From the NCBI GenBank assembly GCA_001772615.1, contig MEUZ01000003.1, positions 12,450-76,449 on the forward strand: a stretch of DNA of 64,000 nucleotides, read 5' to 3'. The number at the start of each line of letters is the position of its first letter. The stretch's first letter is position 1. A model generated the notes under the pieces. That model was not told the DNA's origin. It was given only the letters and a program-made list of their open reading frames with translations, and did no database searches. This DNA is from a candidate division WWE3 bacterium RIFCSPHIGHO2_01_FULL_40_23. Its GTDB lineage: Bacteria > Patescibacteriota > WWE3 > UBA101185 > 2-01-FULL-41-18. The translations under genes were made by a program, and so were the position numbers. Of this stretch, positions 2,500 through 22,273 are shown one piece after another.

Positions 2500-2912
2500 A
2501 TCTTAACCCCCAAAGCAGTAAGAGCTCTTTTTAAGTCCTCTACGGATTTATTAATAACGTAGTACGGTGGATCAAAATTAGCCTCGTGAACCATTGTATT
2601 TCTTATTTTATGAGCTTTCCAGATATCATCATAAAGATACCTGTCAAATCTTGTGGATGCCATTTTTAAACGCTCACCCATAGTTTCTCCCGCAAAAATA
2701 TCCCTCAAAGCGCTATCAAGTGATCTATCCGCAAGTAGTAGAGCCTGTTTTAAATTACTTGGGCCAGAAAGTTTTATTAACTGCTCAATCTTTACCCAGT
2801 CATTTTTAATCTTATCTTCAGTCAACGAAGAAACAGTTGTCCTAAAAAATTTTTTGCCAAAAAGAAAATCTAATAAGCCCATAAATTTATAATTCACCCC
2901 TACTAGCCTCAT
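2496..2912 (-). CDS. Small hypothetical protein with a HEPN-like Rx4H motif (KIRNTMVHE), inserted between gatA and gatB
   Basis: 138-aa ORF. The likely real start is M11 (MGLLDFLFGKK) at 2882, 4 nt after the gatA stop. Its stop (2496-2498) overlaps the gatB start (2497-2499), which points to translational coupling. The protein looks all-alpha, and the R-x4-H motif near the C-terminus resembles HEPN. Confidence 0.45.
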   Translation of the reverse strand: MRLVGVNYKFMGLLDFLFGKKFFRTTVSSLTEDKIKNDWVKIEQLIKLSGPSNLKQALLLADRSLDSALRDIFAGETMGERLKMASTRFDRYLYDDIWKAHKIRNTMVHEANFDPPYYVINKSVEDLKRALTALGVKI

Positions 2913-4296
2913 ATGAAGCAGCCAAATTTAACACTTTCTCTTCATTGAATTTATCAGCCATAATCCCAAATCCTACAGGAAGACCATTTGAAAAACCGCA
3001 AGGGACAGAAATACCGGTTATACCAGCCATTGAGCTTGGTTCAAGAAGCATATCCTGAATTTCCCCAAACATCGCATTATCTTTTGTTGCACCTTCCTTT
3101 AAAGCTGTGCAAGGAGAGATAGGTCCAACAATAACATCAACCTCACTAAAAGCCCTTTTAAAATCCTCAATGATTAAAGTCCTTACTTTCTGTGCTTTGG
3201 CATAGAATTGGTCATAATACCCTGCTGAAAGAGTGTATGTCCCAAGCATAATTCTCTTTTTGGCTTCAAATCCGAAGCTAGAGCGATCAAAACCATACCT
3301 TATCCCATCAAAACGAGCCAGATTGGATGATACTTCCGACCTTTGAATAATCGTGTAAACTGCAACAGAGTACTTCGGATCTAATAAATCCACCTCTTTT
3401 ACGCTGTATCCTTCTTTTTTCAATACCCCAACAGCTTCTAAAACTTTAGACTTAACACCCTCATCCATTCCTTTAACAAAGTAGGATTTAGCTATCCCTA
3501 TCTTTAATTTCGTTTCTGTCCTTCCTACAGACCGTGTAAAATCGGAAACATCTATATCGGTGGAAGTCGCGTCAAACTCGTCCTTACCCGAAATTATGTT
3601 AAGTATAAATGCAGCATCCCAAACCGTCTTAGTAAGCGGTCCCGGTGAATCCGTAGATGAAGCCATAGAGATAACACCATACCTGCTTACCCTTCCGTAA
3701 GTGGGTTTAAGGCCAACTACTCCGCACCAAGCGGCTGGCTGTCTTATTGACCCGGCTGTTTCAGAACCAACGGCAAAAATACACATGTTGGATGCTACAG
3801 CGGCCGCTGATCCTCCCGAGGAGCCTCCCGGCAATCTGGTGATGTCATAGGGATTTTTGGTCGTAAAAAAATCGGAGGCTTCAGTTGAAGAACCGTGAGC
3901 AAAGGCGTCAAGATTTGTCTTGCCTAAGAGGATAGCCCCCGCTTCTTTAAGTTTTTTAGAAACGGTTGATTCATAAGGTGGTGAAAAATTTCTTATGATA
4001 TTTGATGAAGCTGTTGTTAATACATTCTCCGTACAAAAATTATCTTTTAAAGCATAAGGAACTCCTAGCAAAGGAAATCTAGCAAAGGCCTCACCCCCAA
4101 GTTCCCTGATAAGATCATCAGCCCTAGCCGCACTTTTAAGAGCTTCCTCTCTTACTAAAGTAACAAATGCCCTCAAATCTTCATCTTTTGTTTTTATCTC
4201 ATCAAGACAGGCAAAGACTAAATCTTGGGGAGTAAATTTTAGTTCTTTTAAGCCTTCCAAGCTCTCTTTAATTGAGAGTTCATTTAATTTTTTCAT
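2887..4296 (-). CDS. gatA: Glutamyl-tRNA(Gln) amidotransferase subunit A (amidase signature family)
   Basis: Amidase signature GGSSGGSAAAVA and a Ser-cisSer-Lys context. 469 aa. Confidence 0.9.
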   Translation of the reverse strand: MKKLNELSIKESLEGLKELKFTPQDLVFACLDEIKTKDEDLRAFVTLVREEALKSAARADDLIRELGGEAFARFPLLGVPYALKDNFCTENVLTTASSNIIRNFSPPYESTVSKKLKEAGAILLGKTNLDAFAHGSSTEASDFFTTKNPYDITRLPGGSSGGSAAAVASNMCIFAVGSETAGSIRQPAAWCGVVGLKPTYGRVSRYGVISMASSTDSPGPLTKTVWDAAFILNIISGKDEFDATSTDIDVSDFTRSVGRTETKLKIGIAKSYFVKGMDEGVKSKVLEAVGVLKKEGYSVKEVDLLDPKYSVAVYTIIQRSEVSSNLARFDGIRYGFDRSSFGFEAKKRIMLGTYTLSAGYYDQFYAKAQKVRTLIIEDFKRAFSEVDVIVGPISPCTALKEGATKDNAMFGEIQDMLLEPSSMAGITGISVPCGFSNGLPVGFGIMADKFNEEKVLNLAASYEASRGEL

Positions 4297-4582
4297 TCTT
4301 TTTTATAACAGATTTTGTAACAAAAAAACTTTCTTTCTTTTCCTTCGCGTTTCTCAAAACATCTTTCATACTTAAAGATTTTCTTACAAAGTCCTCATCA
4401 AAAATATTTACCTTACCCGATACTTGAGATGTAGGTTTAATATCAGTAGTATCTAGCTCATTAAGAACTTTGATGTAGTCTATTGCCTCTGATAAAAGTG
4501 TTTGAAATTTTTTAACTTCTGTCCCGCTAATTTCAAGTTTAGAAAGTCTGGCTACTTTTTCTACATCCGATGTGGAAATCAT
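4280..4582 (-). CDS. gatC: Asp/Glu-tRNA amidotransferase subunit C
   Basis: 100 aa. Start MISTSDVEKVARLSKLEISGTE is typical of GatC. It overlaps the gatA start. Confidence 0.85.
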   Translation of the reverse strand: MISTSDVEKVARLSKLEISGTEVKKFQTLLSEAIDYIKVLNELDTTDIKPTSQVSGKVNIFDEDFVRKSLSMKDVLRNAKEKKESFFVTKSVIKKNEKIK

Positions 4583-8766: not shown

Positions 8767-9980
8767 GTCTCATCATAAGATATTGCAAACAAAGTCCACA
8801 TCCAAAGCAGAATTTGGGGATAAAATAAAGAGTTTACAAACTGGCTATGTACAAACAGTGACAAAATGGAAGAAAAAGATACAAATGGATAGGATAACCT
8901 CCTCGTTAAAAAAATGCCCTTCCCGGTTTTTATAAGAAAACTTGCGTAAATCAATAAATATGAGATAAGACCGAAAATTCCTGTTGTTGCCAAAACAAGA
9001 AGCAAGCTTGAATCAGATCCCGATCCCGAATGCCCTCCCGTAGAATCTCTAAAATCAAAAAAACCGTAAGCATCCTGATAATACCTGTAATTATTAAACC
9101 CGATACCAAACCAGAGATTAGTTTTTGCTATGCTAAGGGCATTTTGCCAAGATATCAGCCTGTATCTCGCTGAATCTGATGGGTCGGTAACCCCACTTAG
9201 TCTTGTTTGAACTCTTGGAACAAAAAAATAAACCGAAAAAAATAATACCATAAATATCAAAATGTTTACTTTTTTAGACCTTAAAAGACCTGTAATGAGC
9301 ACAAATACACCTAGCATCAGCCACGTGCTTCTTGAAAATGTCAGGAAAATTGCAAGAACATGGATTATTAACACAAGAATACCTAAAGTCTTCCGATAAC
9401 TAAATAACTCATTGAACCTGCTTAAAAGAAGAATAAACCCAAGAACAATGTAAGCCCCTGCAAAATTGGGATCAAAGAAGCTTGAAGTTAATCTGTTTAT
9501 GTGAGGATCCCACCCAAGTTCCAAAGAAAGTTTTGACAGATCAGGAAAGATTGCAAGCTGTATAAAGCCAAATACACTTACAAGTAAAGATGAAACAATC
9601 AAAATCTTTGATGTTTTGTTCTGTAATTTCTTATCTTTGTGAACTAAATTATAAATAATCAAAGAGACCATAACATATATAAGAAACCTCGCGATGTAAA
9701 AACCGGAAAAGACGGCCTTAGGTATCGTTACTTCCCCTATGCTTATAAAAAGGGTGATCAACGAATAACAGGTAAAGAGCAAGGCGAATAAAATGAAGGC
9801 GGGAATAATTATTTTCCTTTTTAAATTCAACAGGTAAAAACCTCCTACGACTGAGAATGCAAAGGCCAGGATTTCAAAAAGATAAATTTTTAGGTTTTCC
9901 CCTGAAGCTATAACACTAAACTGTCCTAAGGAAGCTGTTAAGAACACAAACAAGAGTAAAAATAAAAGATACATTTTCAT
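8763..9980 (-). CDS. O-antigen ligase/polymerase (Wzy/WaaL-like) family polytopic membrane protein
   Basis: About 10-12 predicted TM helices with a large loop near the C-terminal third. It sits in a glycosyltransferase and flippase operon. Confidence 0.55.
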   Translation of the reverse strand: MKMYLLFLLLFVFLTASLGQFSVIASGENLKIYLFEILAFAFSVVGGFYLLNLKRKIIIPAFILFALLFTCYSLITLFISIGEVTIPKAVFSGFYIARFLIYVMVSLIIYNLVHKDKKLQNKTSKILIVSSLLVSVFGFIQLAIFPDLSKLSLELGWDPHINRLTSSFFDPNFAGAYIVLGFILLLSRFNELFSYRKTLGILVLIIHVLAIFLTFSRSTWLMLGVFVLITGLLRSKKVNILIFMVLFFSVYFFVPRVQTRLSGVTDPSDSARYRLISWQNALSIAKTNLWFGIGFNNYRYYQDAYGFFDFRDSTGGHSGSGSDSSLLLVLATTGIFGLISYLLIYASFLIKTGKGIFLTRRLSYPFVSFSSILSLFVHSQFVNSLFYPQILLWMWTLFAISYDET

Positions 9981-11095
9981 CTGCCTAAAACCTCTTCAAA
10001 TAATGTTTCAAGTTTATTTATCTCCATCTGAATCAGATTTTCCTTCATTACCATATCATATCCGGCAAGAGAAACTTTCTCCCTTAACCTTTTACTTCTT
10101 ATAACTTCTTTTAAAACTTTTGTTAGTTCCTTACTACTCTCGCTATCAATTGAAATTCCTGTTTTTTTACCAAATATTATTTCGGAAGTACCTCCCAAAT
10201 CCGTAGCAACAACAGGAAGCCTCGTCATTAAAGCTTCAATAATACTTGTGGCATAAGGTTCTGGTTCTCTTGCAGGATGAACAAAAAGATCCAGACACTT
10301 TAAAATCAAAGCTACATCTTTCCTATACCCCAGAAAAATAATTCTACCTTTTTCACTATATTTCAGAATGTTAGCTATCTCTTTTAAGAACTCTTCCTCC
10401 TTATCGTCAAACACTCCCGCAATAAGACACACAATATTTCGTTTTTTCAGATCTAAAATTGATTTTACCAGTATGTCTATTCCTTTCCATCTGGCCAGTC
10501 TTCCAATAAAACCTATCACAAACTTTCCCTTTAAACCGTAGTCGTTTTTAAACCTTTGAATATCGCGACTAGAAACCTTTCTTAACCTTAAATACATGTC
10601 ACTTGATACATGAACTACTATATTCTTATCCCCTTTTACTCCATAAAAGTTTATTAAGCTTTCAGAAACGTAAATAATTTTTGATGGAACCCATTTAAGC
10701 AAGCTAAATAAAATCCTTGAGTAACAGTAGTCTCTCACGCACCAAATTACCTTTCTTCCGGTTAAAAAAGAGGCTATCGTTCCAGGATACATTCCCCTTT
10801 CAGTATTTGTGACAACCAAGCTTATCTTTTCTTTATAAATAATTATTAATATCTGTAACACAAGTTTAAAAAGATCAATTATCACAAAGGGAGAAAACCT
10901 TTTTAATTTTGGGAAATCCAAAATATACAAAGAATCAGAATATTTTTTATAATCTTTAAGGAGTTCTACCCTACTCCCTGAAGTAATTAATACTTTCTTA
11001 TATTTATTTTTATTAAGATACTTCAAATAATTCATTAATACGAGCTGTGCACCGCCAACCACACTTGCGTGATCAATAAATAAAATGTTTGTCAT
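9977..11095 (-). CDS. Glycosyltransferase family 4 (GT-B fold)
   Basis: C-terminal GT4 signature EPEPYATSIIEALMTRLPVVATDLGGTSEII (E-x7-E region). Confidence 0.8.
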   Translation of the reverse strand: MTNILFIDHASVVGGAQLVLMNYLKYLNKNKYKKVLITSGSRVELLKDYKKYSDSLYILDFPKLKRFSPFVIIDLFKLVLQILIIIYKEKISLVVTNTERGMYPGTIASFLTGRKVIWCVRDYCYSRILFSLLKWVPSKIIYVSESLINFYGVKGDKNIVVHVSSDMYLRLRKVSSRDIQRFKNDYGLKGKFVIGFIGRLARWKGIDILVKSILDLKKRNIVCLIAGVFDDKEEEFLKEIANILKYSEKGRIIFLGYRKDVALILKCLDLFVHPAREPEPYATSIIEALMTRLPVVATDLGGTSEIIFGKKTGISIDSESSKELTKVLKEVIRSKRLREKVSLAGYDMVMKENLIQMEINKLETLFEEVLGR

Positions 11096-11970
11096 ACTTT
11101 TAGCCTCTCAATATCTTCATAAAATTTCAGTTTTCCAACATTTCTAAAGATAAAAGCTAAGGTCTCACAATAAACCATGTCTATCCTAAACCTTGCCGAT
11201 ACCAAAGAATAAAAAAGGTGCAAAGGAGATAAAAAAAGCCTTACTGTAATTTCCCGTTTACTTTGCATTCTTCCTTTAAGCTTTGAGTATAAAAGAACAC
11301 CGCATCCCCTATGCATTGACTGCCTGAAAAAAGATTTAAAAGTAAGTTTGTTATCGTGAAGAATTGGAACAGGAACGTATAAAAATCTTTTTCTTCTTTT
11401 TAACCCTTTTTCTTTAAGTAGAGCATCCTCTCCTGAACAATAATAAGGTATCCTCTCATTAAATCCTCCAAGCTCCCAAAAAGCATCCTTTCTGTATGCT
11501 ATGTTACCAAGAGCAAAAGGAAGTTCGTTTCTTTCCTTACTTATATATTCTTTCTCCTCTCTTACATAACGTTTATAAACATAGCTTTCATACCTACAGT
11601 AGATTGACTTCCCTAAGTTTACATAGCTCCCCCCTGCCGAGAAGAGATCCGGATATCGTCTAAAAACATCAGAAAAGGATAAAAGCCAGTTTTTTGGCAC
11701 TAAACAATCAGAATCTGTAAAAGCAAGGTATTTCCCCCTCGCTTTGGAAGCCCCGAAGTTTCTTGCTACTGAAGGACCTGATCTTTCTTTTAATCTTAAA
11801 ATAGTCACATCCTCTTTTAAAAGAAGTTTATGAGTCCCGTCGGTAGAGGCGTCATCAACAACAATGATCTCAAATTTGTCAGATGGAAAATCCTGATTGT
11901 AAATTGACTTAAGGCATTTAAGAATCTCCCGCTTCCTGTTGTAAGTAGGGATGATTACGGAAAAGAGCAT
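11092..11970 (-). CDS. Glycosyltransferase family 2 (GT-A fold)
   Basis: N-terminus FSVIIPTYNRKREILKCLKSIYNQ...EIIVVDDASTDGT is a classic GT2 start with the DxD region. Confidence 0.8.
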   Translation of the reverse strand: MLFSVIIPTYNRKREILKCLKSIYNQDFPSDKFEIIVVDDASTDGTHKLLLKEDVTILRLKERSGPSVARNFGASKARGKYLAFTDSDCLVPKNWLLSFSDVFRRYPDLFSAGGSYVNLGKSIYCRYESYVYKRYVREEKEYISKERNELPFALGNIAYRKDAFWELGGFNERIPYYCSGEDALLKEKGLKRRKRFLYVPVPILHDNKLTFKSFFRQSMHRGCGVLLYSKLKGRMQSKREITVRLFLSPLHLFYSLVSARFRIDMVYCETLAFIFRNVGKLKFYEDIERLKV

Positions 11971-13229
11971 TACAATTTAATCCAGAGCCTTCGAGCAGTT
12001 AAAGCTAGTAGAAATAAAATAAGTAATTCGCTTATCCATGTTATATGAACTGATGCGTAAAATGAATATTTAGGTATTAACAAAACATTTAAAAGTAGAT
12101 TGGCTATAGACGCACTCAAATAAATAAAGGGAAGGTAATTTTGACCTTTTAATGTAACAATAAGCCATGATAGGGGCTGCGTAAGATAAAAAATAAAGAT
12201 AGTGCCAAGTAGCACTTTTAGAATAAAAACTGATTGATAAAAACCTTTTCCTCCAAGCGCGAAAATAACAAATTCCGATAAGAAAAACCCGAAAAGAGCG
12301 CATAATATTCCAGAAAGGAAAAGTATTAACGTTGACTTTGAAAATGTTGAAAAAAGTCTTTCTTTGCTGATGCTAAAGTTTTTGACCATTATTGGGTAAA
12401 CGGAATTCATAAAAAAAGTGGGTACAATAAGCGACACTTCAAACACCTTGTAAGGAAGGCCGTATATTCCAACAGTTTGAATGTTGTTTAAGTTTAATGA
12501 AGCGGGTAGTTTTAAAAAAGATAGCAACACCGAATCTGCTTTAAAATTTATTTGGCTAAAAATAAACATAAGTCCCAGAGGAATTGAGCTGACAAAGAGT
12601 CTTTTTGAAAGATTTGAATCAAATTTAAAAATGGGCGTTATTCCGACTTTCTTTAAGAACATAAAACTTAATAAGGCTTTAATGAATTCGGAAAATATAA
12701 AGCTGGCTACAATCAGGAAAATACTGCCTTTAGAAAAGATGATTACGGACGATAACAGCAAAGACATCAGACTGCCGACTGAATTTGCGTATGTTGTGAG
12801 ATCGTATCTTAGCCTCACTTGAAAACCGACATTTGAGGAAGAGTTAAAGGAGGTCGTAAGGATAAGTAAAAGACTTATTAATACACCAGCTTTAATTTTT
12901 GTGTCATAAGGCAAAAAGAGCAGCAATACTGAAGCCAAAAGTATTAAAACCACTGATAATAAAAACCTTAGTATAAAGACATTACCGATATGAAGATTAA
13001 TATCTTTATCATCAAGAGAGAGCTCTCTAGTTGAAATAGCATTAATTCCAAAGTCGCTTATTATATAAAATAAAGCCGGAAATGAGACCATAAGGTTAAA
13101 AGCGCCGTACCCCTCCACACCGTAGACCCTAGTGATAAGCATTGTGAGAATAATGGTCACACCCATGCTCACAAACTTTCCCAGAAATTGAGAGACTGTG
13201 TTGCTTGCGATTTTTTCTGCTGTAGTCAT
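11970..13229 (-). CDS. Polysaccharide biosynthesis protein / oligosaccharide flippase (Wzx-like, MOP superfamily)
   Basis: About 12-14 TM helices and 419 aa, positioned between the GT2 gene and a hydrolase in the same operon. Confidence 0.65.
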   Translation of the reverse strand: MTTAEKIASNTVSQFLGKFVSMGVTIILTMLITRVYGVEGYGAFNLMVSFPALFYIISDFGINAISTRELSLDDKDINLHIGNVFILRFLLSVVLILLASVLLLFLPYDTKIKAGVLISLLLILTTSFNSSSNVGFQVRLRYDLTTYANSVGSLMSLLLSSVIIFSKGSIFLIVASFIFSEFIKALLSFMFLKKVGITPIFKFDSNLSKRLFVSSIPLGLMFIFSQINFKADSVLLSFLKLPASLNLNNIQTVGIYGLPYKVFEVSLIVPTFFMNSVYPIMVKNFSISKERLFSTFSKSTLILFLSGILCALFGFFLSEFVIFALGGKGFYQSVFILKVLLGTIFIFYLTQPLSWLIVTLKGQNYLPFIYLSASIANLLLNVLLIPKYSFYASVHITWISELLILFLLALTARRLWIKL

Positions 13230-13241
13230 ATGAAAATTATA

Positions 13242-14486
13242 TCAGGGGCAGGTGATAACCTCTTTCTCAACATAGGTAAGTACCGGAGGCCTTCCTGAAA
13301 CTTTTTTTAAGCTTTTGATAAGATCAAACTGCGGGTAAACACTTCCATCTTTCTTCACCCATGAAAAGTGATCAAAAGGAGGGTCATAGTAAATGGTAAA
13401 TGGTGTTATAGCTACAACCCTATCATCCTTGAGCCATACTTTTTCAAAAGTCTCCTTAATATATGAGGCTACTGTGTTTGAATCGTAAAAGCCGTAGTTA
13501 TGATTCTTCCCTTCTGCATGAGGCCAGCCTGTTTCAGTAATAAACACAGGAATAGTTTCTATTCCGAAACGATTCTTTAACACATCAAGTTCCCATTCAT
13601 AACCTCTCACACTTTGCCTTCCGTATTCAGACGGTTTTCCAAGATATGCAGGCATTGGGTATGGATGACTTGCCCACCCATCGAGCTTTGAAAAAATACC
13701 AGGTGTACTGTCATTCATTCTTACCAAGTAGAGTTCCTCATCCATATACCCATTGAGATTCGGAGCTGTTGAATTAAAGGCACCGTTTAGCATAAAAAAT
13801 CCCTTGTCATAAGATTTGAACGTTTTTATTGTAAAATCAAGCACTTCCGCATATTCTTTTGGATTAACCTTTCCTTTCCAAAATCTGGAATCGTTTGTTT
13901 CGTTATAAACACTTATGTATTTCTTTTCTATAGGCCAGAGGAGTTTATTTAAAAAGTTTGCGGCCTTTTCCGTATCCTTCTTATAACTTTTTGCCGAAAA
14001 GTCCCATAACTGGATTATAGGAATAAGATGTTTTTTGTTAAGAAGGTCAAATATCTTTCTCCATTTAGATCCATCATAATCTCTTACATTATAAGGAATC
14101 AGTACGTAACCCCAGTCCCCACCATTTGAGTTAATGAGCTCGTCAGCCTTTTTTATGAAGTTTTCAGTGGAATAAACATAAAGACCAAACTTATTATTAA
14201 TATAGCCGATATTTTTTTGTACATCTCCTTCCCCTTTCCTATCCTCATAGTACTTATAAGTCAGGCTATCCTCAAAAAAGCAAGGTTCTACTTTAAACTC
14301 AATATCCGAAGGGTTCTCAAACTTACTCTCAAATAAAGCATCCTCGTTTAGGTTGACTTTTCTTGAGTAGACAAGGAAAGACACCAAAACTATTAAGATA
14401 CAAATTAAAGCTTTTCTTAAAGGTAGTTTCATTGTTAAAATACCTAAGTGAAAAAATTTTTTACTCCAAGGGTAATTATACTTCAT
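13242..14486 (-). CDS. Secreted/membrane-anchored putative glycoside hydrolase (TIM-barrel, clan GH-A-like)
   Basis: The FITETGWP motif resembles the nucleophile region (I/V-T-E-x-G) of GH5/GH39-type hydrolases. An aromatic-rich barrel follows. The real start is probably MKLPLRKALICILIVLV (TM anchor) near 14432, because the called start overlaps the divergent gene at 14448. Confidence 0.45.
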   Translation of the reverse strand: MKYNYPWSKKFFHLGILTMKLPLRKALICILIVLVSFLVYSRKVNLNEDALFESKFENPSDIEFKVEPCFFEDSLTYKYYEDRKGEGDVQKNIGYINNKFGLYVYSTENFIKKADELINSNGGDWGYVLIPYNVRDYDGSKWRKIFDLLNKKHLIPIIQLWDFSAKSYKKDTEKAANFLNKLLWPIEKKYISVYNETNDSRFWKGKVNPKEYAEVLDFTIKTFKSYDKGFFMLNGAFNSTAPNLNGYMDEELYLVRMNDSTPGIFSKLDGWASHPYPMPAYLGKPSEYGRQSVRGYEWELDVLKNRFGIETIPVFITETGWPHAEGKNHNYGFYDSNTVASYIKETFEKVWLKDDRVVAITPFTIYYDPPFDHFSWVKKDGSVYPQFDLIKSLKKVSGRPPVLTYVEKEVITCP

Positions 14487-15671
14487 ATCGCAACAATAAA
14501 CCTTTTACTTTTAGCGTTGGTTTTTATTATATTAAGGAAGACGGATGTAGTGTTCTTCTCCCCCATCGGAGAAACCATACAAGTAATAAACTCACTATTT
14601 AGTAAACCTCCAAAAAGAGTCGTTTATGGATACCTTCCCTACTGGATGTTAAACAATTCCAAATATATTGAATATGACAAACTCACGGACATCGCATACT
14701 TTTCTTTAAAAGTTGACGAAAACGGCAATTTTGTAGAAAAAGATGCGGAAGGAAACGTTGAGGACGGATTTAAAAACTGGAAAGAAAGTGAAAAGTTAAA
14801 AAAAGTCATTGAATATTCAAAATTGTGGAAAATCAGATTTTCCTTAACTATAACAGGAGAGAATGATGAATCCATTGATGCCTTCCTCTCTTGCAGGAAA
14901 TGCTGGGATGCTCTTCTGGCAAATGTTAAGCAGGAGCTAGACGCTAAAAGCATAAAAGATCTAAATATTGATTTTGAGCATGCAGACGAAACAACGGAAG
15001 AGGTATCAGATGCTTACGCTTTGTTTGTAAAATTTATGAATGACAGCCTAGATGAAACGTTCCAAGATTCGCGAGTTGTTGTCGCTTCCTTCGCAGATTC
15101 ATACAAAAGGAAGAGGGTTACTAACCCCACAAAACTTGCAGAAGCTTCGGACGCTTTATTTGTAATGGCTTATGACTTTCATCAGCCAACCTCTGAGAAT
15201 GCAGGTCCTGTCGCTCCAATAAACGGTTCACCTGAAAAATATGATTATGATGTTTCCAACGCCATTAAAGACTACAAAAAATATGTGTCGGAGCACAAGC
15301 TTATACTCGGCGTACCCTATTATGGCTATAACTTCCTGATTGAAAAACCTGAACCAGACTCCAAAAGAGTTATAGGAAACCCTTCAAACGGGTACTCAAT
15401 ATCGCAGTATTACGCAATGATTAAAGACAACAAAAATATCCCCCTTGAAAAAGCCGTATGGGACCCCACGTCTGAAACGCCTTATTTAATATATAACAGT
15501 CAGGAAAACGGCGCGCTAAGAGTTTTGCATTTTGAAAATGAGGAATCTCTTAAGAAGAAGTATGATATTGTTTTGGACGAAAACTTATTGGGAGTGGGTT
15601 TATGGGCTCTTGGGTACGATGGTGATTACGAAGAGTTCTGGGACGCCCTATCTGATAAATTTAAGAACTGA
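14448..15671 (+). CDS. Glycoside hydrolase family 18-like (chitinase-like) secreted protein
   Basis: N-terminal TM/signal. Carries GYLPYW, a DLNIDFEH segment corresponding to the GH18 DGxDxDWE catalytic motif (first Asp replaced by Asn, Glu kept), and C-terminal GVGLWALGYD. Confidence 0.6.
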   Translation: MKKFFTPRVIILHIATINLLLLALVFIILRKTDVVFFSPIGETIQVINSLFSKPPKRVVYGYLPYWMLNNSKYIEYDKLTDIAYFSLKVDENGNFVEKDAEGNVEDGFKNWKESEKLKKVIEYSKLWKIRFSLTITGENDESIDAFLSCRKCWDALLANVKQELDAKSIKDLNIDFEHADETTEEVSDAYALFVKFMNDSLDETFQDSRVVVASFADSYKRKRVTNPTKLAEASDALFVMAYDFHQPTSENAGPVAPINGSPEKYDYDVSNAIKDYKKYVSEHKLILGVPYYGYNFLIEKPEPDSKRVIGNPSNGYSISQYYAMIKDNKNIPLEKAVWDPTSETPYLIYNSQENGALRVLHFENEESLKKKYDIVLDENLLGVGLWALGYDGDYEEFWDALSDKFKN

Positions 15672-16329
15672 ATTCCCCAACAAAGTCGGTTATGCTCTGG
15701 ATTATCTCATTTAAAATATCCTCGCTTTTTCTTATATTCTCGTCATTTGAAGCTAAATTGTGAGCTCCCCCTTTCAATTCAGTAAGTTTAAAATTCAAAT
15801 GGTTTCTTTCAAGAACCGTCCTGACATCGAAAGCCTTTATATATTCGTCATTTTCCCCTTGCAGCACAAGAACTGGAGATTTTAACTCCCTTAATCTTTC
15901 CTCGGTTATGTAATTTGTAATCGCTGGCTCATAAAAGCCTAATATGATGACCGGAGATCTTAGGTTATTTTGTATTAAGTACTCTAGCGACACTACACCA
16001 CCTATAGACTTACCCACAAGAAATACATTTTTAACCGGTGCATTATCAAGAAGCAAAGAATAGGCACTATCAAGATCCATTATGAGATCTTCAAACTTAA
16101 CCTCTCTAAAATCAATTTTTGAAACATAATAAAAGTTATATCTTAAAGCTGTAAATTTGTACTGATGATAAAAATGGTCATGAAGAGTTACTATTATGGG
16201 ATCTTCTTTATTTCCCGATGCATTGTGAGAAAAAAGGACAGCACCTTTTGGTTCCAAAACTTTATCTAATGTCCCCGAAAGTTTAGAACCCCCTAAAGAG
16301 AGTGATTTTATTTCAACATCGTTAAACAT
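15661..16329 (-). CDS. Alpha/beta-hydrolase fold esterase (dienelactone-hydrolase-like)
   Basis: GxSxG nucleophile elbow (VGKSIGGVV), an HDHF-type His region, and a length of about 220 aa. Confidence 0.65.
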   Translation of the reverse strand: MFNDVEIKSLSLGGSKLSGTLDKVLEPKGAVLFSHNASGNKEDPIIVTLHDHFYHQYKFTALRYNFYYVSKIDFREVKFEDLIMDLDSAYSLLLDNAPVKNVFLVGKSIGGVVSLEYLIQNNLRSPVIILGFYEPAITNYITEERLRELKSPVLVLQGENDEYIKAFDVRTVLERNHLNFKLTELKGGAHNLASNDENIRKSEDILNEIIQSITDFVGEFSS

Positions 16330-16376
16330 ACTAACTGGTGGACCATTCTGGACTATGTTGGAATAACTTGTAGTAA

Positions 16377-17228
16377 CTATGAGACTAAATAAATTCCAAC
16401 AACACTTATAACTGCGCCTACTATTTTCAACAAAGCATTATCTTTTTCTTTGAGTAACAAAATTCCCATAAACACAGTCAATATAACTCCCACTAGGTTA
16501 ATAGTTACCACTTTTGAAGGAAACTCTGCAATCTGTAAAGCTGAAAAGAAAGTTATAGCACCAATCCCATAAAATAGTGATGTAATCAACATTGTTTTGA
16601 TTAGACTTTTATTAAAAACTGTATTTAATTTTAAAATTATCTGTGGCTTGATAGCTAGCATTAACAATGATGGAAATAAAAAAGCTATAAACACAAATGG
16701 GTATAAGGGTATAGACTCCAGAATAATTTTGTCATTTATATTTGCTAGACCAAAGCATAACCCTGCTAACAATGCTGGTATATCGCTTTTGGAAACTGAA
16801 AGCGTACCTTTTCTGTAATTCACAATAATTACGCTTAATATTATTAGAATTGTACCTACTAATTCCTTTAACCCATAAGACTGACCCAATATTAAAACAA
16901 ACCCAATAGTTGAAAATAACGCCCTACTAGCAAAAATGACCACAAATTTAGATGCTTCAGTTTGTTTTAGAGACTTGAAAATAAAGATGTTACCTAATCC
17001 ATATAACACAGTCATGAAAATAAGGTTTACCAAAATATTACTCATGTTACTGAATACAAGTTTCCCTGTTGAAAGGGCGAAAGCACCTATCAAACCTGCA
17101 ACAATTAGTTGAAATACAACTGAAAATATAAAGGGGTCACTATCCTTATCCTTTAACATTATCCTTTGTAGGATAGACACAAAAGATGATAAGACAACGC
17201 TAATTAAAATCAATAATAGCCAACTCAT
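16377..17228 (-). CDS. EamA/DMT family transporter
   Basis: Ten predicted TM helices arranged as two 5-TM halves. Confidence 0.7.
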   Translation of the reverse strand: MSWLLLILISVVLSSFVSILQRIMLKDKDSDPFIFSVVFQLIVAGLIGAFALSTGKLVFSNMSNILVNLIFMTVLYGLGNIFIFKSLKQTEASKFVVIFASRALFSTIGFVLILGQSYGLKELVGTILIILSVIIVNYRKGTLSVSKSDIPALLAGLCFGLANINDKIILESIPLYPFVFIAFLFPSLLMLAIKPQIILKLNTVFNKSLIKTMLITSLFYGIGAITFFSALQIAEFPSKVVTINLVGVILTVFMGILLLKEKDNALLKIVGAVISVVGIYLVS

Positions 17229-18097
17229 AATGTTATGTTAGCAGAATTTAATGATTCTTTGTGATAGATTGCACTTTCCAACCTAATATTCAACTGGTGC
17301 TTTTTAACACAGTCTTTAATTATCAGGTCTAATTGGTCGCGATAATCTTTGTTTTTAGAGGAATAAAATTTCTCAAGCACAGCCTTATCTAATCCTACAG
17401 CTTCCTTTTTTAGCCTATTCAGAATATAGGTACTCAAATTAATATGCTCTACATAGATATCATTAGTACCTGTTTCCTTAATCTTTTTAAATAATTCATC
17501 TAATTTTTCAGGGTACGCGACAAAATGTGGAAGTAATGGTCCTACAAACGCATAGGTTTTTAAACCTTCAGAATTTAGTTTCCTTAAAGCTTCAAATCTT
17601 TGGGTAACATTAGGTGCATATTTTTCAAAATATCTTGATATACCATCTTCAAAGCTGGTAATTGTTAACCCAATTTCAATATTTTTAAGCTTTTGAAACA
17701 AATCAATATCTCTCAATACCAAATCTGATTTTGTTAATATACTAACTAATCCTTGATAATCTGCGTCAACTAACACTTCTAAGCATTTTCTTGTAATTTG
17801 ATATTTCGCTTCTACTCCTTGGTAAGGGTCTGTTACCGAGCTAAACAATATTCTTTTACCAATACCTTTATTTTTAAGTTTTAGTACCGCAGTTTTCAGC
17901 AATTCAGCGGCGTTTGTTTTAACATATACAAACTCACCCCAATCATTTATGTCTTTCCCAACATATCTACACATAAAAGACGCATAACAGTAAATACAAC
18001 CAAATCTACAACCTGTATATGGATTTACAACAAAATCCGCATCAGGTAATTTACTTGGAGTTAATATTGACTTCGCAACAACCTCTTTAATTTCCAT
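17225..18097 (-). CDS. Radical SAM protein, SplB-like (spore-photoproduct-lyase / DNA repair photolyase family)
   Basis: VNPYTGCRFGCIYCYA contains the CxxxCxxC Fe-S motif in the N-terminal context typical of COG1533/SplB-like enzymes. Confidence 0.7.
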   Translation of the reverse strand: MEIKEVVAKSILTPSKLPDADFVVNPYTGCRFGCIYCYASFMCRYVGKDINDWGEFVYVKTNAAELLKTAVLKLKNKGIGKRILFSSVTDPYQGVEAKYQITRKCLEVLVDADYQGLVSILTKSDLVLRDIDLFQKLKNIEIGLTITSFEDGISRYFEKYAPNVTQRFEALRKLNSEGLKTYAFVGPLLPHFVAYPEKLDELFKKIKETGTNDIYVEHINLSTYILNRLKKEAVGLDKAVLEKFYSSKNKDYRDQLDLIIKDCVKKHQLNIRLESAIYHKESLNSANITL

Positions 18098-18128
18098 TAC
18101 CAGTGATTATACCGCGTGTTTACCCTAT

Positions 18129-18191
18129 CCCCCAACATTATAAGAGAAACAACACAACGCAGTTGTGTTAAAATCCTCCAAATGTTGGGGA
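18129..18191. repeat. Nested inverted repeat: outer arms CCCCCAACATT / AATGTTGGGGG (18129-18139 and 18181-18191), inner perfect hairpin AACACAAC-GCA-GTTGTGTT (about 18150-18168)
   Basis: Read directly from the sequence. It lies in the 115-bp gap between the radical SAM gene start and the first ORF of the element. Candidate double-strand origin/nick site for the Rep protein, or an operator/att site. Confidence 0.6.
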
Positions 18192-18193
18192 GA

Positions 18194-18223
18194 TTGGATT
18201 TTCGCTAAAGCTTGGGGTACACT
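18194..18223 (+). promoter_or_regulatory. Candidate promoter of the element's first ORF (-35 TTGGAT, 18-nt spacer, -10 TACACT). The transcript would be near-leaderless, starting at ATG 18233.
   Basis: Hexamers at 18194-18199 and 18218-18223. The -35 abuts the right arm of the outer palindrome. Confidence 0.3.
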
Positions 18224-18997
18224 CCTTTTGCTATGGAGTTACGCGATATTAAATACTTAAAATCATTAAATCCAATAGAGTTTTTAGATAAACCAAGTAA
18301 GGAAACTGTTGAGTTTTTGGCTAAGTTTATGCAAGACCCTAACTTTGTTGCAGTAATCAAACAAATGAGAAGTTACTACAACTACCCTGAAACTGGTATT
18401 GATTTAACACCTTTTATTGGTAAAAACTTTTCAGATACTCTGACTGAAGAAAATGTATTACTAAAAGATACGCTATACCTAAATGCTGATAGGTTAAGAG
18501 AGAAGGTTGGATTAAACGCTGATTTTACACAACAGTTATATTTACTGATATATTTCAATTCATTTATTGATGTTGATTATTATGAGGGGTTTATCACAGA
18601 TAAGGTTGATTTTGCAGTAACAAAAAAGCAGATAATACTTAAACTACTGGATTATAAACAAGAGGTAGCAACAATATATATCCCTTACACCATGAGTTTT
18701 AATACTTTCATAAAACAAACAAAAGAAGTGTGGAATACCATGCAGGATGAAATGGATAAAAACTTAACAGATAATCCTTATGAATTAAGGTTACACAAAA
18801 ACACAGAATTAGCAGTTGAAATAACCAGATTAAAAGATACTGAAAACAAAACATTTTCTGAAATATCTGAATTATTATCTTCAAAAACTAAAGAGGTGGA
18901 TGAAAAGCTTAGTAATGAGAAGTATATTAAAAAACTATATTATGATTACAAAATGCTTTGGTTAAAACCACAAAACCCAGAAGTACCAAAAAGTTAA
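18212..18997 (+). CDS. Hypothetical protein (element-encoded), no recognisable domain
   Basis: 261-aa ORF (TTG-called start; an in-frame ATG at 18233 gives MELRDIKYL...). It is Lys/Glu/Tyr-rich and predicted helical. Confidence 0.5.
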   Translation: MGYTPFAMELRDIKYLKSLNPIEFLDKPSKETVEFLAKFMQDPNFVAVIKQMRSYYNYPETGIDLTPFIGKNFSDTLTEENVLLKDTLYLNADRLREKVGLNADFTQQLYLLIYFNSFIDVDYYEGFITDKVDFAVTKKQIILKLLDYKQEVATIYIPYTMSFNTFIKQTKEVWNTMQDEMDKNLTDNPYELRLHKNTELAVEITRLKDTENKTFSEISELLSSKTKEVDEKLSNEKYIKKLYYDYKMLWLKPQNPEVPKS

Positions 18998-19037
18998 TAA
19001 ACTTTTAGGGTCTGACCATTTAGTGATATAGCAATAT

Positions 19038-19057
19038 TCTCCAGTTAATGCTGGAGA
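19038..19057 (+). promoter_or_regulatory. Stem-loop TCTCCAG-TTAATG-CTGGAGA that sequesters the ATG (19048-19050) of the following 60-aa ORF
   Basis: Perfect 7-bp inverted repeat with a 6-nt loop containing the start codon. It sits between the first ORF and the small ORF and is preceded by GCAATATTC. Confidence 0.3.
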
Positions 19058-19230
19058 TTAAATCCCCTACAAAAGAAGAATTAGACCAACTTAAATGCTT
19101 TTTAGAAGCAAAATTTGGTATTTCTTTTTCTGATGATGAGGTTTTAGAAAGTTATTACTCCCTAACCCATTTAGGAAAAGCAATATATCTGTTTTGTAAG
19201 CAACAGGGGGTCAAAAATGAAATCTCCTGA
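19048..19230 (+). CDS. Small hypothetical protein (60 aa), element-encoded
   Basis: ORF with stop/start overlap into the rep gene (ATGA at 19217-19220... the rep start is at 19217). Acidic, helical. Confidence 0.35.
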   Translation: MLEIKSPTKEELDQLKCFLEAKFGISFSDDEVLESYYSLTHLGKAIYLFCKQQGVKNEIS

Positions 19231-20167
19231 AACTATAGATGATTTTATTGCTTATTTATCCTCCCCTTTAGAAGCACCAGAAATAAACCAAGATTTATAT
19301 TACAAACCCTACCACTCAAAAACTGATGATTTAATAAAAGAAATTCTCGCCAAGCGTAGCGATGGAAATCGCACGCTTTCCCCCTTCTCTCTACTTGATA
19401 GTAGCGTCATAATTCCACCAGTAATTGATAGCTTTAAAACTGCATATTACTTAACTGCAACTACCTATGGGGATTATGTTGACCTGTATATTCATGAAAA
19501 ACCCATTATCAAAGCAAAAAATCTTCAATCAAGAAGAAATCATGGGTTTAAACAAAAAGAGAAAGTTGATAGAAGTAGCGATTACAGAAGAAGAAACTCA
19601 ATAAGGGCGTTAAACAACATTCGCCAACTTACCCTTGCTAACTTTAACAATGACTATGTAAAACTTCTAACCCTTACTTTTGGTGATTGTGACTTTGATA
19701 TTACTAATCCCAGAATTTGCAACAAATTGTTAAGCAAGTTTCTTCAAAAATTACGCAAACGCTATCCTAAATTTAAATATCTAGGTGTTATTGAGTTTCA
19801 AAAGCGAGGTGCTGTGCATTATCATGTTTTATGTGATTTACCCTTTATTGATAAAGAAGATTTAGCAAACTTGTGGGGATATGGATTTATAGATATCAGA
19901 AAACCTGATTTTATTGTTGGAAGTTACCTTTTCAAATATCTTTCAAAAACCCTGTATGACCAGAAATTAAAGGGTATTAGGGTGTATTTCCACTCTAAAA
20001 ACCTTACCAAACCAGTTTTAAATACAGGCGTTACAGCTTTTACTATTGCTGAAAAACTACAGACTTCTGAGATACACTTTGCTAATGAGTACACTAACAA
20101 ATATAATGGGGATGTTATTAAGTATCGCCAGTTTAAAATTCTTCCTGCACCACCAACAAATGTATGA
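19217..20167 (+). CDS. rep: Rolling-circle replication initiator protein (HUH endonuclease superfamily, two-tyrosine type)
   Basis: Motif I KLLTLTFGD (uuTuT). Motif II AVHYHVLCDL (HUH). Motif III GSYLFKYLSK (Y-x3-Y-x2-K, two catalytic Tyr as in phiX174 gpA-type Reps). Confidence 0.8.
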   Translation: MKSPETIDDFIAYLSSPLEAPEINQDLYYKPYHSKTDDLIKEILAKRSDGNRTLSPFSLLDSSVIIPPVIDSFKTAYYLTATTYGDYVDLYIHEKPIIKAKNLQSRRNHGFKQKEKVDRSSDYRRRNSIRALNNIRQLTLANFNNDYVKLLTLTFGDCDFDITNPRICNKLLSKFLQKLRKRYPKFKYLGVIEFQKRGAVHYHVLCDLPFIDKEDLANLWGYGFIDIRKPDFIVGSYLFKYLSKTLYDQKLKGIRVYFHSKNLTKPVLNTGVTAFTIAEKLQTSEIHFANEYTNKYNGDVIKYRQFKILPAPPTNV

Positions 20168-21678
20168 CTAATAATTGTTTTATTTACTGTAGAAAATCTA
20201 CTGATAGAAATGATAAACAAGAGAAATCCTTGGAAACACAGGAAAGAATTTGTTTAGAAACTGCAAGGCGTAACAATCTTAATGTTTTAGAGGTAATTTT
20301 AGAATCTAAATCAGCTAAAGACGCTGGTAATAGACCTAAATTTGATGAGTTAATCGCACATATTAAAAGTAAAGATGCAGGTGTTATTGTTACTTGGGAT
20401 ATTGATAGATTAGCAAGAAATTTAACTGAAGCAGGACTACTTCAATCTTTATATGAAACTGGCTTTATTCAAAAAATAATCACTGAAAATGATATTTACC
20501 AATCTGATAGGGATTTTATGAATATTGGTCATGAGTTTGTTGATGCTTCTAACTACTCCAGAAGATTAAGGTCAAAAGTTAAAGATGGAATTGAAACAAA
20601 ACTTAGAAATGGCGAAATTCCAGGGTCTGTAAAAATAGGTTATTACATAGTTGATAAGAAAATGAAACCAGACCCAGATAGGTCACCTTTTGTAAAACTA
20701 GCATTTGAAATGTATGTACAAGGTAATTCTCTACGCATTATTACTCAAAAACTTTATGAAATGGGTTTTAGAAGCAAAAAAGGTAACAAAATGTATCTAT
20801 CCAGTATTGCTGAAATGCTAAAAAGAATTGATTACACTGGTACTTTTGAATACAACAAGCAACTTTATCAAGGAAACTATGACCCACTTATTTCAATGGT
20901 TTTATTTGATAAGGTACAAAAATTACTTGTTAAAAACAATCTTCCAAAATCTCAAAAACATTATTTTCTTTACAGGGGGGTTATAAGATGTGCTGACTGT
21001 GGTTGTATGCACACTGCAACTATGAAACAAGGAAAATATGTTTATTACTACTGCACCAACTCAAAGCGTATCTGCAAACAACATGAAAAGTATATTGAGG
21101 AAGAAGAAATGCACAAACTCTACAGCACTAAACTATCTGAATTACCTATAGATGTTGAAATTTTAAATCAATCCTATGACCTGTACGCTAAAAATTACCT
21201 AATGCAGTACAAAGATGTGGAAAATCAGAAAAACCTTGTTAAAAAGCAACTAGGGAATGTAGAAACAAGGATTAAGCGCTTGGTTGATATCTACATAAAT
21301 GGCGAAATCCAACAGGAAGTATATTCTCAAAAATACAAAGAGTTAGTTTTAGAAAAAGAAACACTCCAAAATACCTTAAATAAACTAGAAACCCAAAAAC
21401 CTGAAGAAACCTTGGAAACAATTAGAAAATTCAAAGATTATTGTTGTGACCTGCAAAAAACCTATTCACTTGGTAATAATGAGGTAAAAGATGAAATACT
21501 AAATGCAGTGTGTTGGAATTTTTCTATCCTCAATGGTGAAATAGCGTCAATACAATACAAAAAGCCCTTTGATATGATAGCAAAACTACCCAAAAACGCT
21601 GATTTTAGAAATTGGTGGGTCAAGCAGGATTCGAACCTGCGACCTCCTCGATGTGAACGAGGCGCTCTAACCAGCTGA
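20164..21678 (+). CDS. Large serine recombinase (resolvase/integrase family) with recombinase domain, Zn-ribbon and coiled-coil
   Basis: N-terminal catalytic domain FIYCRKSTDRNDKQEKSLETQ (Y-x-R-x-S-T...SL..Q). Zn-ribbon CADCGCMHTATMKQGKYVYYYCTN. Long coiled-coil C-terminal region. The start overlaps the rep stop (ATGA). The last 22 codons are antisense to tRNA-Val. Confidence 0.85.
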   Translation: MTNNCFIYCRKSTDRNDKQEKSLETQERICLETARRNNLNVLEVILESKSAKDAGNRPKFDELIAHIKSKDAGVIVTWDIDRLARNLTEAGLLQSLYETGFIQKIITENDIYQSDRDFMNIGHEFVDASNYSRRLRSKVKDGIETKLRNGEIPGSVKIGYYIVDKKMKPDPDRSPFVKLAFEMYVQGNSLRIITQKLYEMGFRSKKGNKMYLSSIAEMLKRIDYTGTFEYNKQLYQGNYDPLISMVLFDKVQKLLVKNNLPKSQKHYFLYRGVIRCADCGCMHTATMKQGKYVYYYCTNSKRICKQHEKYIEEEEMHKLYSTKLSELPIDVEILNQSYDLYAKNYLMQYKDVENQKNLVKKQLGNVETRIKRLVDIYINGEIQQEVYSQKYKELVLEKETLQNTLNKLETQKPEETLETIRKFKDYCCDLQKTYSLGNNEVKDEILNAVCWNFSILNGEIASIQYKKPFDMIAKLPKNADFRNWWVKQDSNLRPPRCERGALTS

Positions 21679-21689
21679 GCTATAGACCC
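21613..21689 (-). tRNA. tRNA-Val (anticodon CAC). The acceptor stem has one U.U mismatch (6:67).
   Basis: Cloverleaf from the reverse complement: acceptor GGGTCTA/TTGACCC, D-stem GCTC/GAGC, anticodon stem CCTCG/CGAGG with loop TTCACAT, T-stem GCAGG/CCTGC with loop TTCGAAT, CCA encoded. Confidence 0.75.
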
Positions 21690-21701
21690 ATTACATCTCT
21701 T

Positions 21702-21718: not shown

Positions 21719-22273
21719 ATGTTTAAATCACTGAAAAAGCTTCTAAAAGAATCGTTTTTAACGGCTCTTGTAGCAGTTTTATTAGTCTTTATTGTTAATC
21801 AACTCCTCATTGAACCAGAACAAATATTTGGAGTATCAATGGAACCTGCACTCAAAAACGCCGAAAGAGTGCTTGCGGATAAAATCTTCTATAAAAGAGG
21901 TTCACTAAAAAGAGGGGACATAGTTGTTTTTAAATCCGTTGAAGATAATAAAAGCGTTTTTGTAAAGCGTGTCATTGGTTTACCCGGTGAATCTCTTATG
22001 ATAAAAGAAGACAAGATTAACATATTTAACGACGTCAATCCACAGGGTTTTATCCTGGAAGAGAAATACCTCAAAGATTCTATCAAAACTTACTCTGGGA
22101 GTTTTCTTGAAGAAAGAAAAATTCTTAAAATTCCTGCGGAGGCTTACATTGTTTTAGGGGATAACAGATTTAAAAGCATAGATTCACGAGAATGGGGATT
22201 TCTACCTGAAGAGAAGATAATCGGAAAGATAATTTTTAGGCATTGGCCGCCAAACAGGTTCGGGTTTATATAA
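21719..22273 (+). CDS. lepB: Signal peptidase I
   Basis: N-terminal TM. Carries SMEP (Ser box), [24 protein letters not shown] (box E). Confidence 0.85.

Follow-up and report, generated by a model that had tools for sequence, protein, structure and literature searches.

The DNA considered here, referred to below as the window, is a stretch of 64,000 nucleotides (nt) on contig MEUZ01000003.1 of a candidate division WWE3 bacterium, a member of the candidate phyla radiation (CPR), from Rifle groundwater. Four open reading frames (ORFs) in the window follow one another in the same direction on the plus strand, and these are ORF1, ORF2, a gene for a replication initiator (Rep) and a gene for a large serine recombinase (LSR), that is, an integrase. 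ORF1 extends from 18233 to 18997 (254 amino acids, aa) if the ATG favoured by gene callers and homologues is used, with a TTG at 18212 as the alternative start. It is followed by ORF2 (19048-19230, 60 aa), rep (19217-20167, 316 aa) and the LSR gene (20164-21678, 504 aa); ORF2 and rep overlap by 14 nt, and rep and the LSR gene by the ATGA at 20164-20167. The LSR frame runs into an intact host gene on the minus strand, a tRNA-Val(CAC) at 21613-21689, which was found by ARAGORN and is the sole Rfam match (70.9 bits). The LSR ORF ends with 66 nt (22 codons) that are antisense to the 3' part of this tRNA, and the conserved portion of the LSR stops near 21612. The neighboring host genes are a radical SAM gene on the left (17225-18097, minus strand) and lepB on the right (21719-22273, plus strand), the latter followed by rpmA and rplU. 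NCBI assigns this lepB protein to candidate division WWE3 bacterium RIFCSPHIGHO2_01_FULL_40_23. The GC fraction over ORF1 is 0.28-0.30, slightly lower than the 0.31-0.38 of the flanks.

An earlier note, written from the sequence of this DNA, had described four co-directional plus-strand ORFs, three rolling-circle replication (RCR) motifs in Rep and an ATGA overlap between rep and the LSR gene, and all of these are present. It had also placed the ORFs in an otherwise minus-strand host region, which is correct for the radical SAM gene on the left and incorrect for lepB on the right, and had given the element an extent of about 3.6 kb. The element proper covers approximately 18120-21612, or roughly 3.49 kb; the tail of the LSR ORF is antisense tRNA, and the tRNA itself is host DNA that lies outside the element.

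Rep is a two-tyrosine rolling-circle initiator of the HUH type. It matches PF23343 (REP_ORF2-G2P) with E=7.8e-21 and a score of 74.7 bits (cut-off 27.8). Its match in PHROGs is phrog_3419, annotated as 'rolling circle DNA replication initiation', at 1.2e-21. Seven residues are invariant across 21 Rep homologues with identities down to 23%: T152 and T154 of motif I, H201 and H203 of the HUH motif, and Y237, Y241 and K244 of motif III. The annotated relatives are encoded by Bacillales rolling-circle plasmids of 1.5-1.8 kb (32-37% identity), and the closest phage proteins are those of the 'bajarodino' viruses, small phages with ssDNA (46% identity over the core), and the rep product of a Spiroplasma plectrovirus. 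A further relative, 38% identical, is encoded on 2,828-nt contigs (L045-L048) that are present in many metagenomes. These contigs are circularly permuted between samples, and their terminal overlaps of 141, 127 and 55 nt equal the k-mer of the assembler; therefore, the Rep lineage includes free circular replicons. The 2,828-nt circle encodes, in addition to Rep, five small ORFs (63-105 aa) and is without an integrase.

The LSR contains the three domains Resolvase (PF00239, 5.2e-18), Recombinase (PF07508, 1.5e-15) and Zn_ribbon_recom (PF13408, 2.4e-6) and matches phrog_95, 'integrase', at 1.5e-74. Its N-terminal catalytic stretch reads ...IYCRKS(12)TD..., which includes the nucleophilic serine.

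The other two proteins are more difficult to place. ORF1 has 19 close homologues, and an exhaustive profile search of 1.84 billion representative proteins returned 72 clusters of similar length, none of which has a Pfam domain. The protein itself has no match in Pfam, PHROGs or PADLOC. Its AlphaFold2 model is all-helical with a predicted local distance difference test score (pLDDT) of 56, the confident helices being at 182-243, where they form a three-helix C-terminus. This C-terminus weakly resembles region 4 of (extracytoplasmic function) sigma factors (E=0.076), and neither Foldseek nor a PDB profile search gave anything significant for ORF1. The models and searches thus describe ORF1 as a family-specific all-helical orphan with an apparently helix-turn-helix-like C-terminus; the suggestion that it is a structural, partition or defence/anti-defence gene found no evidence. 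ORF2 is the most conserved non-enzymatic gene of the element, with a mean column identity of 75% over 12 elements. It is predicted by AlphaFold2 to be a two-helix hairpin (pLDDT 83) and has no family match in Pfam or PHROG and no significant structural neighbor. Taken together, Pfam, PHROG, NCBIfam, PADLOC, PDB profiles, AlphaFold2 and Foldseek gave nothing significant on the function of either protein. We propose that ORF1 is probably a regulator and ORF2 probably a directionality or copy-control factor.

The four genes recur as a module. Homologues of ORF1 and close homologues of Rep (63-94% identity) led us to it in L030/L052, L031 (two copies), L032, L033, L035, L036, L037/L039, L040, L041, L043 and L044, so that it is present in no fewer than 10 other WWE3 contigs. 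The labelled family contigs are WWE3 except for L032, the record of which is labelled Saccharibacteria, and the family is found in contigs labelled WWE3 or resembling WWE3 only. A scan of JGI metagenomes with the left-end pattern described below added three further copies, all of them integrated, and IMG/VR had no family match, either by Rep protein or by left-end DNA pattern. Wherever a contig includes the right end, the LSR ORF enters the CCA end of a minus-strand tRNA, which is left intact; the LSR ORFs of the relatives thus extend into the neighboring tRNA as the one in the window does. The targets belong to five tRNA species (Val-CAC, Val-TAC, Ala-CGC, Gln-TTG and Ile-GAT). The left flanks are unrelated between copies and include a radical SAM gene, a major facilitator superfamily transporter, ksgA and a metallo-beta-lactamase-fold gene, among others. 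The target tRNA of the window (21613-21689) has a U6-U67 mismatch in its acceptor stem; the target tRNAs of L031, L032 and L043 pair perfectly.

The most informative relative is L043, which occupies the same tRNA-Val(CAC)–lepB–L27–L21 site with a different left flank. The element proteins of the window and L043 are 84.5% (LSR), 78% (ORF2), 66% (Rep) and 57% (ORF1) identical, compared to 36-38% for lepB, 33-43% for L21 and 64-69% for L27. The element proteins are much closer than the host lepB and L21, and therefore the element is younger than the split between the two hosts. These comparisons indicate that the window and L043 elements reflect horizontal transfer and independent integration at the same tRNA. 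In L051, which comes from the same sample series, the site is empty: purM is followed by a 26-nt spacer, tRNA-Val(CAC) and lepB, with no element-like sequence. L051 was reached through its lepB, the nearest homologue; this is merely 48% identical, and so no close relative genome exists. The recurrence at five tRNAs, a conservation above that of the host genes and the empty site in L051 bear out the proposal in the earlier note of a compact integrated replicon, with a HUH Rep and an LSR, beside tRNA-Val. That proposal would have lost its footing with a mutated catalytic tyrosine or HUH motif and no empty-site variant; as noted above, the Rep residues are invariant and L051 is empty.

Not all members of the family are intact. 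In L038 (1-2473), ORF1 and ORF2 are retained and an intact Rep is replaced by a transposase of the IS3 type (orfA/orfB, rve-like domain); the copy L031-E1 is without the left arm described below. Two types of right-end remnant were also found. One is a conserved 'solo' sequence, (GATTTTAGAAAT)TGGTGGRCCRTTTGGGACTATGTTGGAACTYT.TAC, in two genomes (L036:181-235 and L043:1166-1215), and the other, at L043:930-1047, consists of a 3' fragment of an LSR gene and then 19 nt resembling the 3' end of a tRNA-Ala, which break off in the T-loop. What is seen in L036 and L043 could be left over from older insertions or represent unusual att sites.

At the left end, similarity among the members begins 0-12 nt to the left of an arm that we call the left arm. 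The candidate left terminus, or crossover, is a TTT at 18119-18121 (plus strand), to the left of which lies the upstream region of the radical SAM gene. The conservation starts with (T/C)CCCACCAC, which is CCCCCAACAT in the window and is an inverted copy of the ...CCCACCA end of the tRNA. In the window this left outer arm, CCCCAACAT, is at 18130-18138 (plus strand) and forms the 5' strand of an outer stem. The 3' strand is an internal arm, ATGTTGGGG, at 18182-18190 (plus strand), that is also a direct repeat of the TGGTGGG of the tRNA end. In the family as a whole the left arm pairs with this internal arm, GTGGTGGG, about 50 nt downstream, and the two enclose a TTATAAG motif, a second hairpin and a TGnTAAAAT box. 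The outer helix is 100% paired in alignment A6, and 3/8 of its pairs have changed on both sides. The inner hairpin, AACACAAC-GCA-GTTGTGTT, at 18151-18169 (plus strand), likewise has compensatory double changes in 3/8 pairs. For both helices together, 97.4% of the cells in the 12-sequence alignment are paired and six pairs show double changes; 0/500 shuffles attain the observed value, and controls in which the arms were slid reach 48% at most. Another possibility considered was that the left arm and hairpin are host DNA, a palindromic attB; this was ruled out in that the arm covaries with the internal arm and L051 is without such a sequence.

Several signals are nested in this structure. The TTATAAG motif at 18138-18144 (plus strand) has the family consensus CACTTATAAG and occupies the same place in 12 elements. 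In L045, the free 2.8-kb relative, a CTTATAAG motif is found in the loop of a hairpin in the non-coding region of the 2,828-nt circle, which makes it a candidate nick site. By this likeness, TTATAAG/CACTTATAAG is the candidate Rep nick site, or double-strand origin, of the integrated elements. Read on the minus strand (18170-18150), the inner hairpin and the T-run after it look like a terminator. An extended -10-like box, TGTTAAAAT (consensus TGnTAAAAT, 18166-18174, plus strand), lies upstream of the operon and is a candidate promoter. Its TAAAAT is invariant in 12/12 aligned left ends, and a scan for consensus promoters did not list the box, there being no -35 match. Finally, a near-invariant non-coding leader, GATTGGATTTTCGCTAAAGCTTGGGGTACACTCC, at 18192-18225 (plus strand), is conserved in all members and served as a search pattern; it may act as an operator, a ribosome-binding region or an origin.

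The right ends are simpler. They all share ...GATTTTAGnAAT(T)GGTGG or ...GCTGATTTTAGnAAT(T)GGTGG and then continue into tRNA-specific sequence. The window and L043 are near-identical up to the TGGTGG, after which 7/12 positions differ, each one matching the acceptor stem of its own host. Therefore, the tRNA body is host DNA. The candidate right crossover, GAAAT|T, is at 21608-21613 (plus strand), just 3' of the CCA encoded by the tRNA, and a TT dinucleotide is common to the left and right junctions.

These results are best explained, in our judgment and with good confidence, by a plasmid-like mobile element of about 3.5 kb, an integrative rolling-circle replicon that is integrated in the chromosome and belongs to an undescribed family. 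We found no description of such a family in the searchable literature. The close agreement of the element proteins of the window and L043, compared to their host proteins, implies that the family was mobile after those hosts diverged and has moved between distant relatives; the empty site in L051 is further evidence of mobility. In the scheme we propose, the LSR would recombine attP, formed by the joined ends of the element, with an attB consisting of the 3' strand of the tRNA acceptor and T-arm and a few A/T bases of the trailer, the crossover most likely falling within a few bases 3' of the CCA. After excision, Rep would nick the origin at the left end (candidate CACTTATAAG), and the circle would be copied by a rolling-circle route. 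The nested hairpin would presumably act as a single-strand origin, as a regulatory or terminator element, or as both.

Some observations weigh against this explanation, and they concern both the present activity of the element and the site of crossover. Exact-protein look-ups retrieved some 24 contigs with the locus, from metagenomes of many Rifle groundwater samples, most of these contigs being 100% identical over 6 kb. The element is in the same place in all of them, and among these contigs, its own population, there is neither a circular form nor an empty site. The search for circles and empty sites that the earlier note had proposed thus gave no sign of current excision in this population; the window copy is fixed there and may no longer excise. 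No direct repeats flank any copy, whether one considers the left junctions, the relatives or the window, and the 3' 19 nt of the tRNA, with up to three mismatches allowed, have no further copy in the 64-kb window or at the left junctions of the relatives; the lack of direct repeats is what one would expect of a serine recombinase whose core is 2 bp long. If the crossover is at the CCA end, the reconstructed attP is without the clear dyad symmetry that is usual for serine-integrase sites. In addition, the same dinucleotide is found 10-11 nt outside both terminal arms in 5/6 elements, an arrangement attained by 70/20,000 shuffles, and this points to the T-loop instead. Our assignments of an origin, a nick site and roles for ORF1 and ORF2 are inferences.

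The core may accordingly be at the CCA end or in the T-loop (21630-21631), and neither position fits every observation. In the first (model A), the crossover would be in the A/T bases directly 3' of the CCA; in the window, TT 21612-21613 would be paired with TT 18119-18120. This model leaves the tRNA intact before and after integration and accounts for the sharp boundary between the window and L043. The attB that it gives for L043, GCACGAGTA-AA-TTGGTGGACC, resembles by eye the empty site of L051, GCAGAGTATTGAG-TGGTGGACGG. The joint of the circle would read ...GATTTTAGAAA-TT-TACCCTATCCCCCAACATT... and the empty site ...ACCGCGTG-TT-GGTGGGTCAAG.... The model also predicts, from translation of the joined ends, that the C-terminus of the LSR would differ by state, ending in ...ADFRNWWVKQDSNLRPPRCERGALTS when integrated and in ...ADFRNLPYPPTL in the circle. 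In the second (model B), the crossover would be in the T-loop, the joint of the circle would read ...TGGTGGGTCAAGCAGGA-TT-TACCC..., and the element would carry the last ~19 nt of the tRNA, like the Dehalococcoides ssrA islands do with tmRNA. There is a precedent in a serine integrase that inserts into the T-loop of tmRNA (PMC3146451). Besides the dinucleotide symmetry mentioned above, a T-loop crossover would fit a 5-nt identity, GGGAT, in L052 and a 4-nt one, GGAA, in L032, the remnant of L043 that stops in the T-loop, and Logan contigs that break within the tRNA, at window 21636 and 21660. However, the displaced tRNA 3' end that it predicts is not at the left junction of any locus, nor in the window; the near-identity of the window and L043 up to TGGTGG, followed by the tRNA of each host, contradicts an element-borne tRNA end; and the attB that follows from it has a broken tRNA, while the tRNA at the site that is actually empty, in L051, is intact. 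We favour the crossover at the CCA end, with the T-loop as a live alternative that we regard as possible although the less probable. Neither model explains why the left terminus has an inverted mimic of the tRNA end. There is also a speculative view, one that we would hold to be rather improbable, in which the element has an undescribed mode of integration at tRNA ends, with the inverted copy of the CCA end and the internal arm forming a duplex that mimics the target, and with the C-terminus of the integrase being rewritten by antisense tRNA. The left-arm duplex might represent a single-stranded attP that folds, much as in CTXphi, but served by the serine recombinase or jointly with the HUH Rep, and the fusion of the LSR to antisense tRNA upon integration could be a built-in directionality switch. 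Two other arrangements were rejected: an attP at the internal arm would give a gene order other than the one observed, and neither HUH-mediated insertion in the manner of IS91/IS608 nor a CTXphi-like single-strand exchange fits the strand polarities of the junctions.

Returning to the integrative replicon, it has to be compared with readings that give the same genes another role. The element could be grounded, that is, a fossil or a domesticated resident from an old integration that has lost excision and is kept either as a neutral passenger or with co-opted genes. The fixed, ~100% identical copies in every contig of the population, without circle or empty site, would be consistent with this, as would the decayed relatives (L038, L031-E1, the L043/L036 remnants and a sample variant with a 40-nt deletion in the LSR gene). 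Yet the four ORFs are intact, the catalytic residues are invariant, the non-coding left end is structurally constrained, and the element proteins of the window and L043 are far closer than the host proteins, which leaves a grounded element as a possibility to be taken seriously and still a doubtful one. An unlikely reading is that the element is a satellite or miniature of a filamentous-type ssDNA phage, like RS1 of CTXphi, that would replicate as a rolling circle and be packaged by a helper inovirus or plectrovirus. The name of PF23343 refers to ORF2 of plectroviruses and gpII of inoviruses, Rep has its best phage matches in the 'bajarodino' ssDNA viruses and the Spiroplasma plectrovirus rep, and CPR inoviruses have been reported, some of them with serine recombinases (PMC6813254). 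Against a satellite, the element has four ORFs only, none of them for a morphogenesis ATPase or a small membrane protein of the coat type; PHROG has no match for ORF1 or ORF2, and the family is not in IMG/VR, by protein or by DNA pattern. We know of no helper phage for the element. It is also quite unlikely, in our estimation, that the element is an integrative mobilizable element (IME), the Rep of which would act as a relaxase with transfer through a helper conjugation system. Most streptococcal IMEs combine an integrase of the tyrosine or serine type with a relaxase related to RCR initiators (PHA00330, Rep_2, Rep_trans; PMC5704250), but the present element has no coupling protein and no identified oriT, the loci that were read contain no conjugation genes, and the relatives of its Rep are on free replicons of 1.5-2.8 kb, which suggests replication rather than transfer.

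Several better known classes of element do not fit. An inovirus or plectrovirus prophage would not be limited to four ORFs, and there is no pI-type morphogenesis ATPase or coat gene. A pSAM2-type actinomycete integrative and conjugative element (AICE) is ruled out by scores of 23.5 bits for RepSA (cut-off 34) and 14.6 for NF041486 (cut-off 700), with no Tra and no tyrosine integrase. For IS91/ISCR/Helitron elements, Helitron_like_N scores 19.9 bits (cut-off 28.9), a dedicated serine integrase is at the junction and, by our own reasoning, the orientation of the ends does not fit one-strand HUH insertion. The Dehalococcoides ssrA-GI (DsiB) type is ruled out by the absence of a ~20-bp direct repeat of the target 3' end at the far boundary.

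The element shares features with each of a number of described systems. The earlier note considered the pairing of a HUH Rep and an integrase to be unusual, and it is less so than claimed: streptococcal IMEs pair RCR-type Reps with tyrosine or serine integrases (PMC5704250). They are also small and integrated, with a HUH or rolling-circle-type initiator and a site-specific recombinase, and some of them are at tRNA 3' ends (PMC5704250). However, the streptococcal IMEs with serine recombinases are reported to disrupt protein genes, whereas the WWE3 element lies at the end of a tRNA; the IMEs are larger, usually have a TcpA coupling protein and occur in Firmicutes with conjugative helpers, while the WWE3 element has only four genes, leaves its target tRNA intact and has a CPR host. 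The Bacillales plasmids (Brevibacillus borstelensis NC_004938, 1,786 bp, and Geobacillus NC_022994, 1,540 bp) and L045 share the Rep family, with 32-38% identity in the catalytic domain, but are free circles without an integrase and without homologues of ORF1 and ORF2. In the Dehalococcoides ssrA islands (DsiB), an LSR gene also lies against the 3' end of a tRNA-like gene that is preserved (PMC3146451). Those islands are at least 10 kb long, carry cargo and a second small recombinase and have no Rep, and in place of their direct repeat the WWE3 element has an inverted copy of the tRNA end. The pSAM2-type AICEs are likewise integrated at a tRNA gene and have a rolling-circle Rep, to which the WWE3 Rep has a weak match (PF20199, RepSA) far below the cut-off; they differ in having a tyrosine integrase and excisionase, an FtsK-like transfer protein and a size of 9-24 kb. 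RS1, the satellite of CTXphi, is also chromosomal and about 3 kb in size, with a gpII-type Rep, small regulators and no structural genes. It relies on the host XerCD at dif and a folded single-stranded attP, in contrast to the WWE3 element, which has its own serine recombinase and targets a tRNA end. The family is thus set apart by four genes in 3.5 kb, the orphan ORF1 and ORF2, a junction that preserves the tRNA and has no repeats, the architecture of its left end and its CPR host.

The CPR, or Patescibacteria, have tiny genomes, are mostly uncultured, and very few mobile elements have been described from them. A four-gene element that replicates and integrates would show that plasmid-like horizontal transfer operates among WWE3 bacteria. 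Its Rep, origin, serine integrase and tRNA attB make a compact chassis that could become a vector for organisms without genetic tools. If the undescribed mode of integration mentioned above were true, this would be the smallest element able by itself both to replicate and to integrate, and the CPR bacteria would have in it a natural genetic tool. To our knowledge, there are few documented cases of a serine integrase leaving its tRNA target whole in the absence of long direct repeats, and how the inverted mimic of the tRNA end on the left works is a mechanistic question of its own.

A few minor observations concern individual copies and their surroundings. One Rifle scaffold (L005/L024, SAMN03202994 scaffold_3914) has a deletion of ~40 nt in the LSR gene, at window 20311-20350, and the end of this contig diverges past window 20912; this is a minor variant in which the integrase is inactivated, or else an artefact of assembly. 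In L031 (JACPGI010000004.1), where the first copy adjoins tRNA-Val(TAC), a second and strongly diverged member lies 2.5 kb upstream of it, at 690-4376. The proteins of this second copy are ORF1' (247 aa), ORF2' (59 aa), Rep' (366 aa, including an insert rich in Cys) and LSR' (506 aa), and the frame of the last enters tRNA-Gln(TTG). L052 has, a few kb away from its element, an ORF (L052:998-1597) that resembles a LAGLIDADG-type homing endonuclease, with a faint Pfam match, and the target tRNA-Ile(GAT) of this contig is followed by tRNA-Ala(TGC), an order that recalls the spacer of an rRNA operon. The host genes to the left of the window element, at approximately 9200-17200, display strain-level variation when L002, L004 and L023 are compared with L001, the element itself being unchanged. 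In one variant a 293-aa protein without a Pfam match takes the place of an EamA transporter, and in others a glycosyltransferase and polysaccharide-synthesis genes are split or fused.

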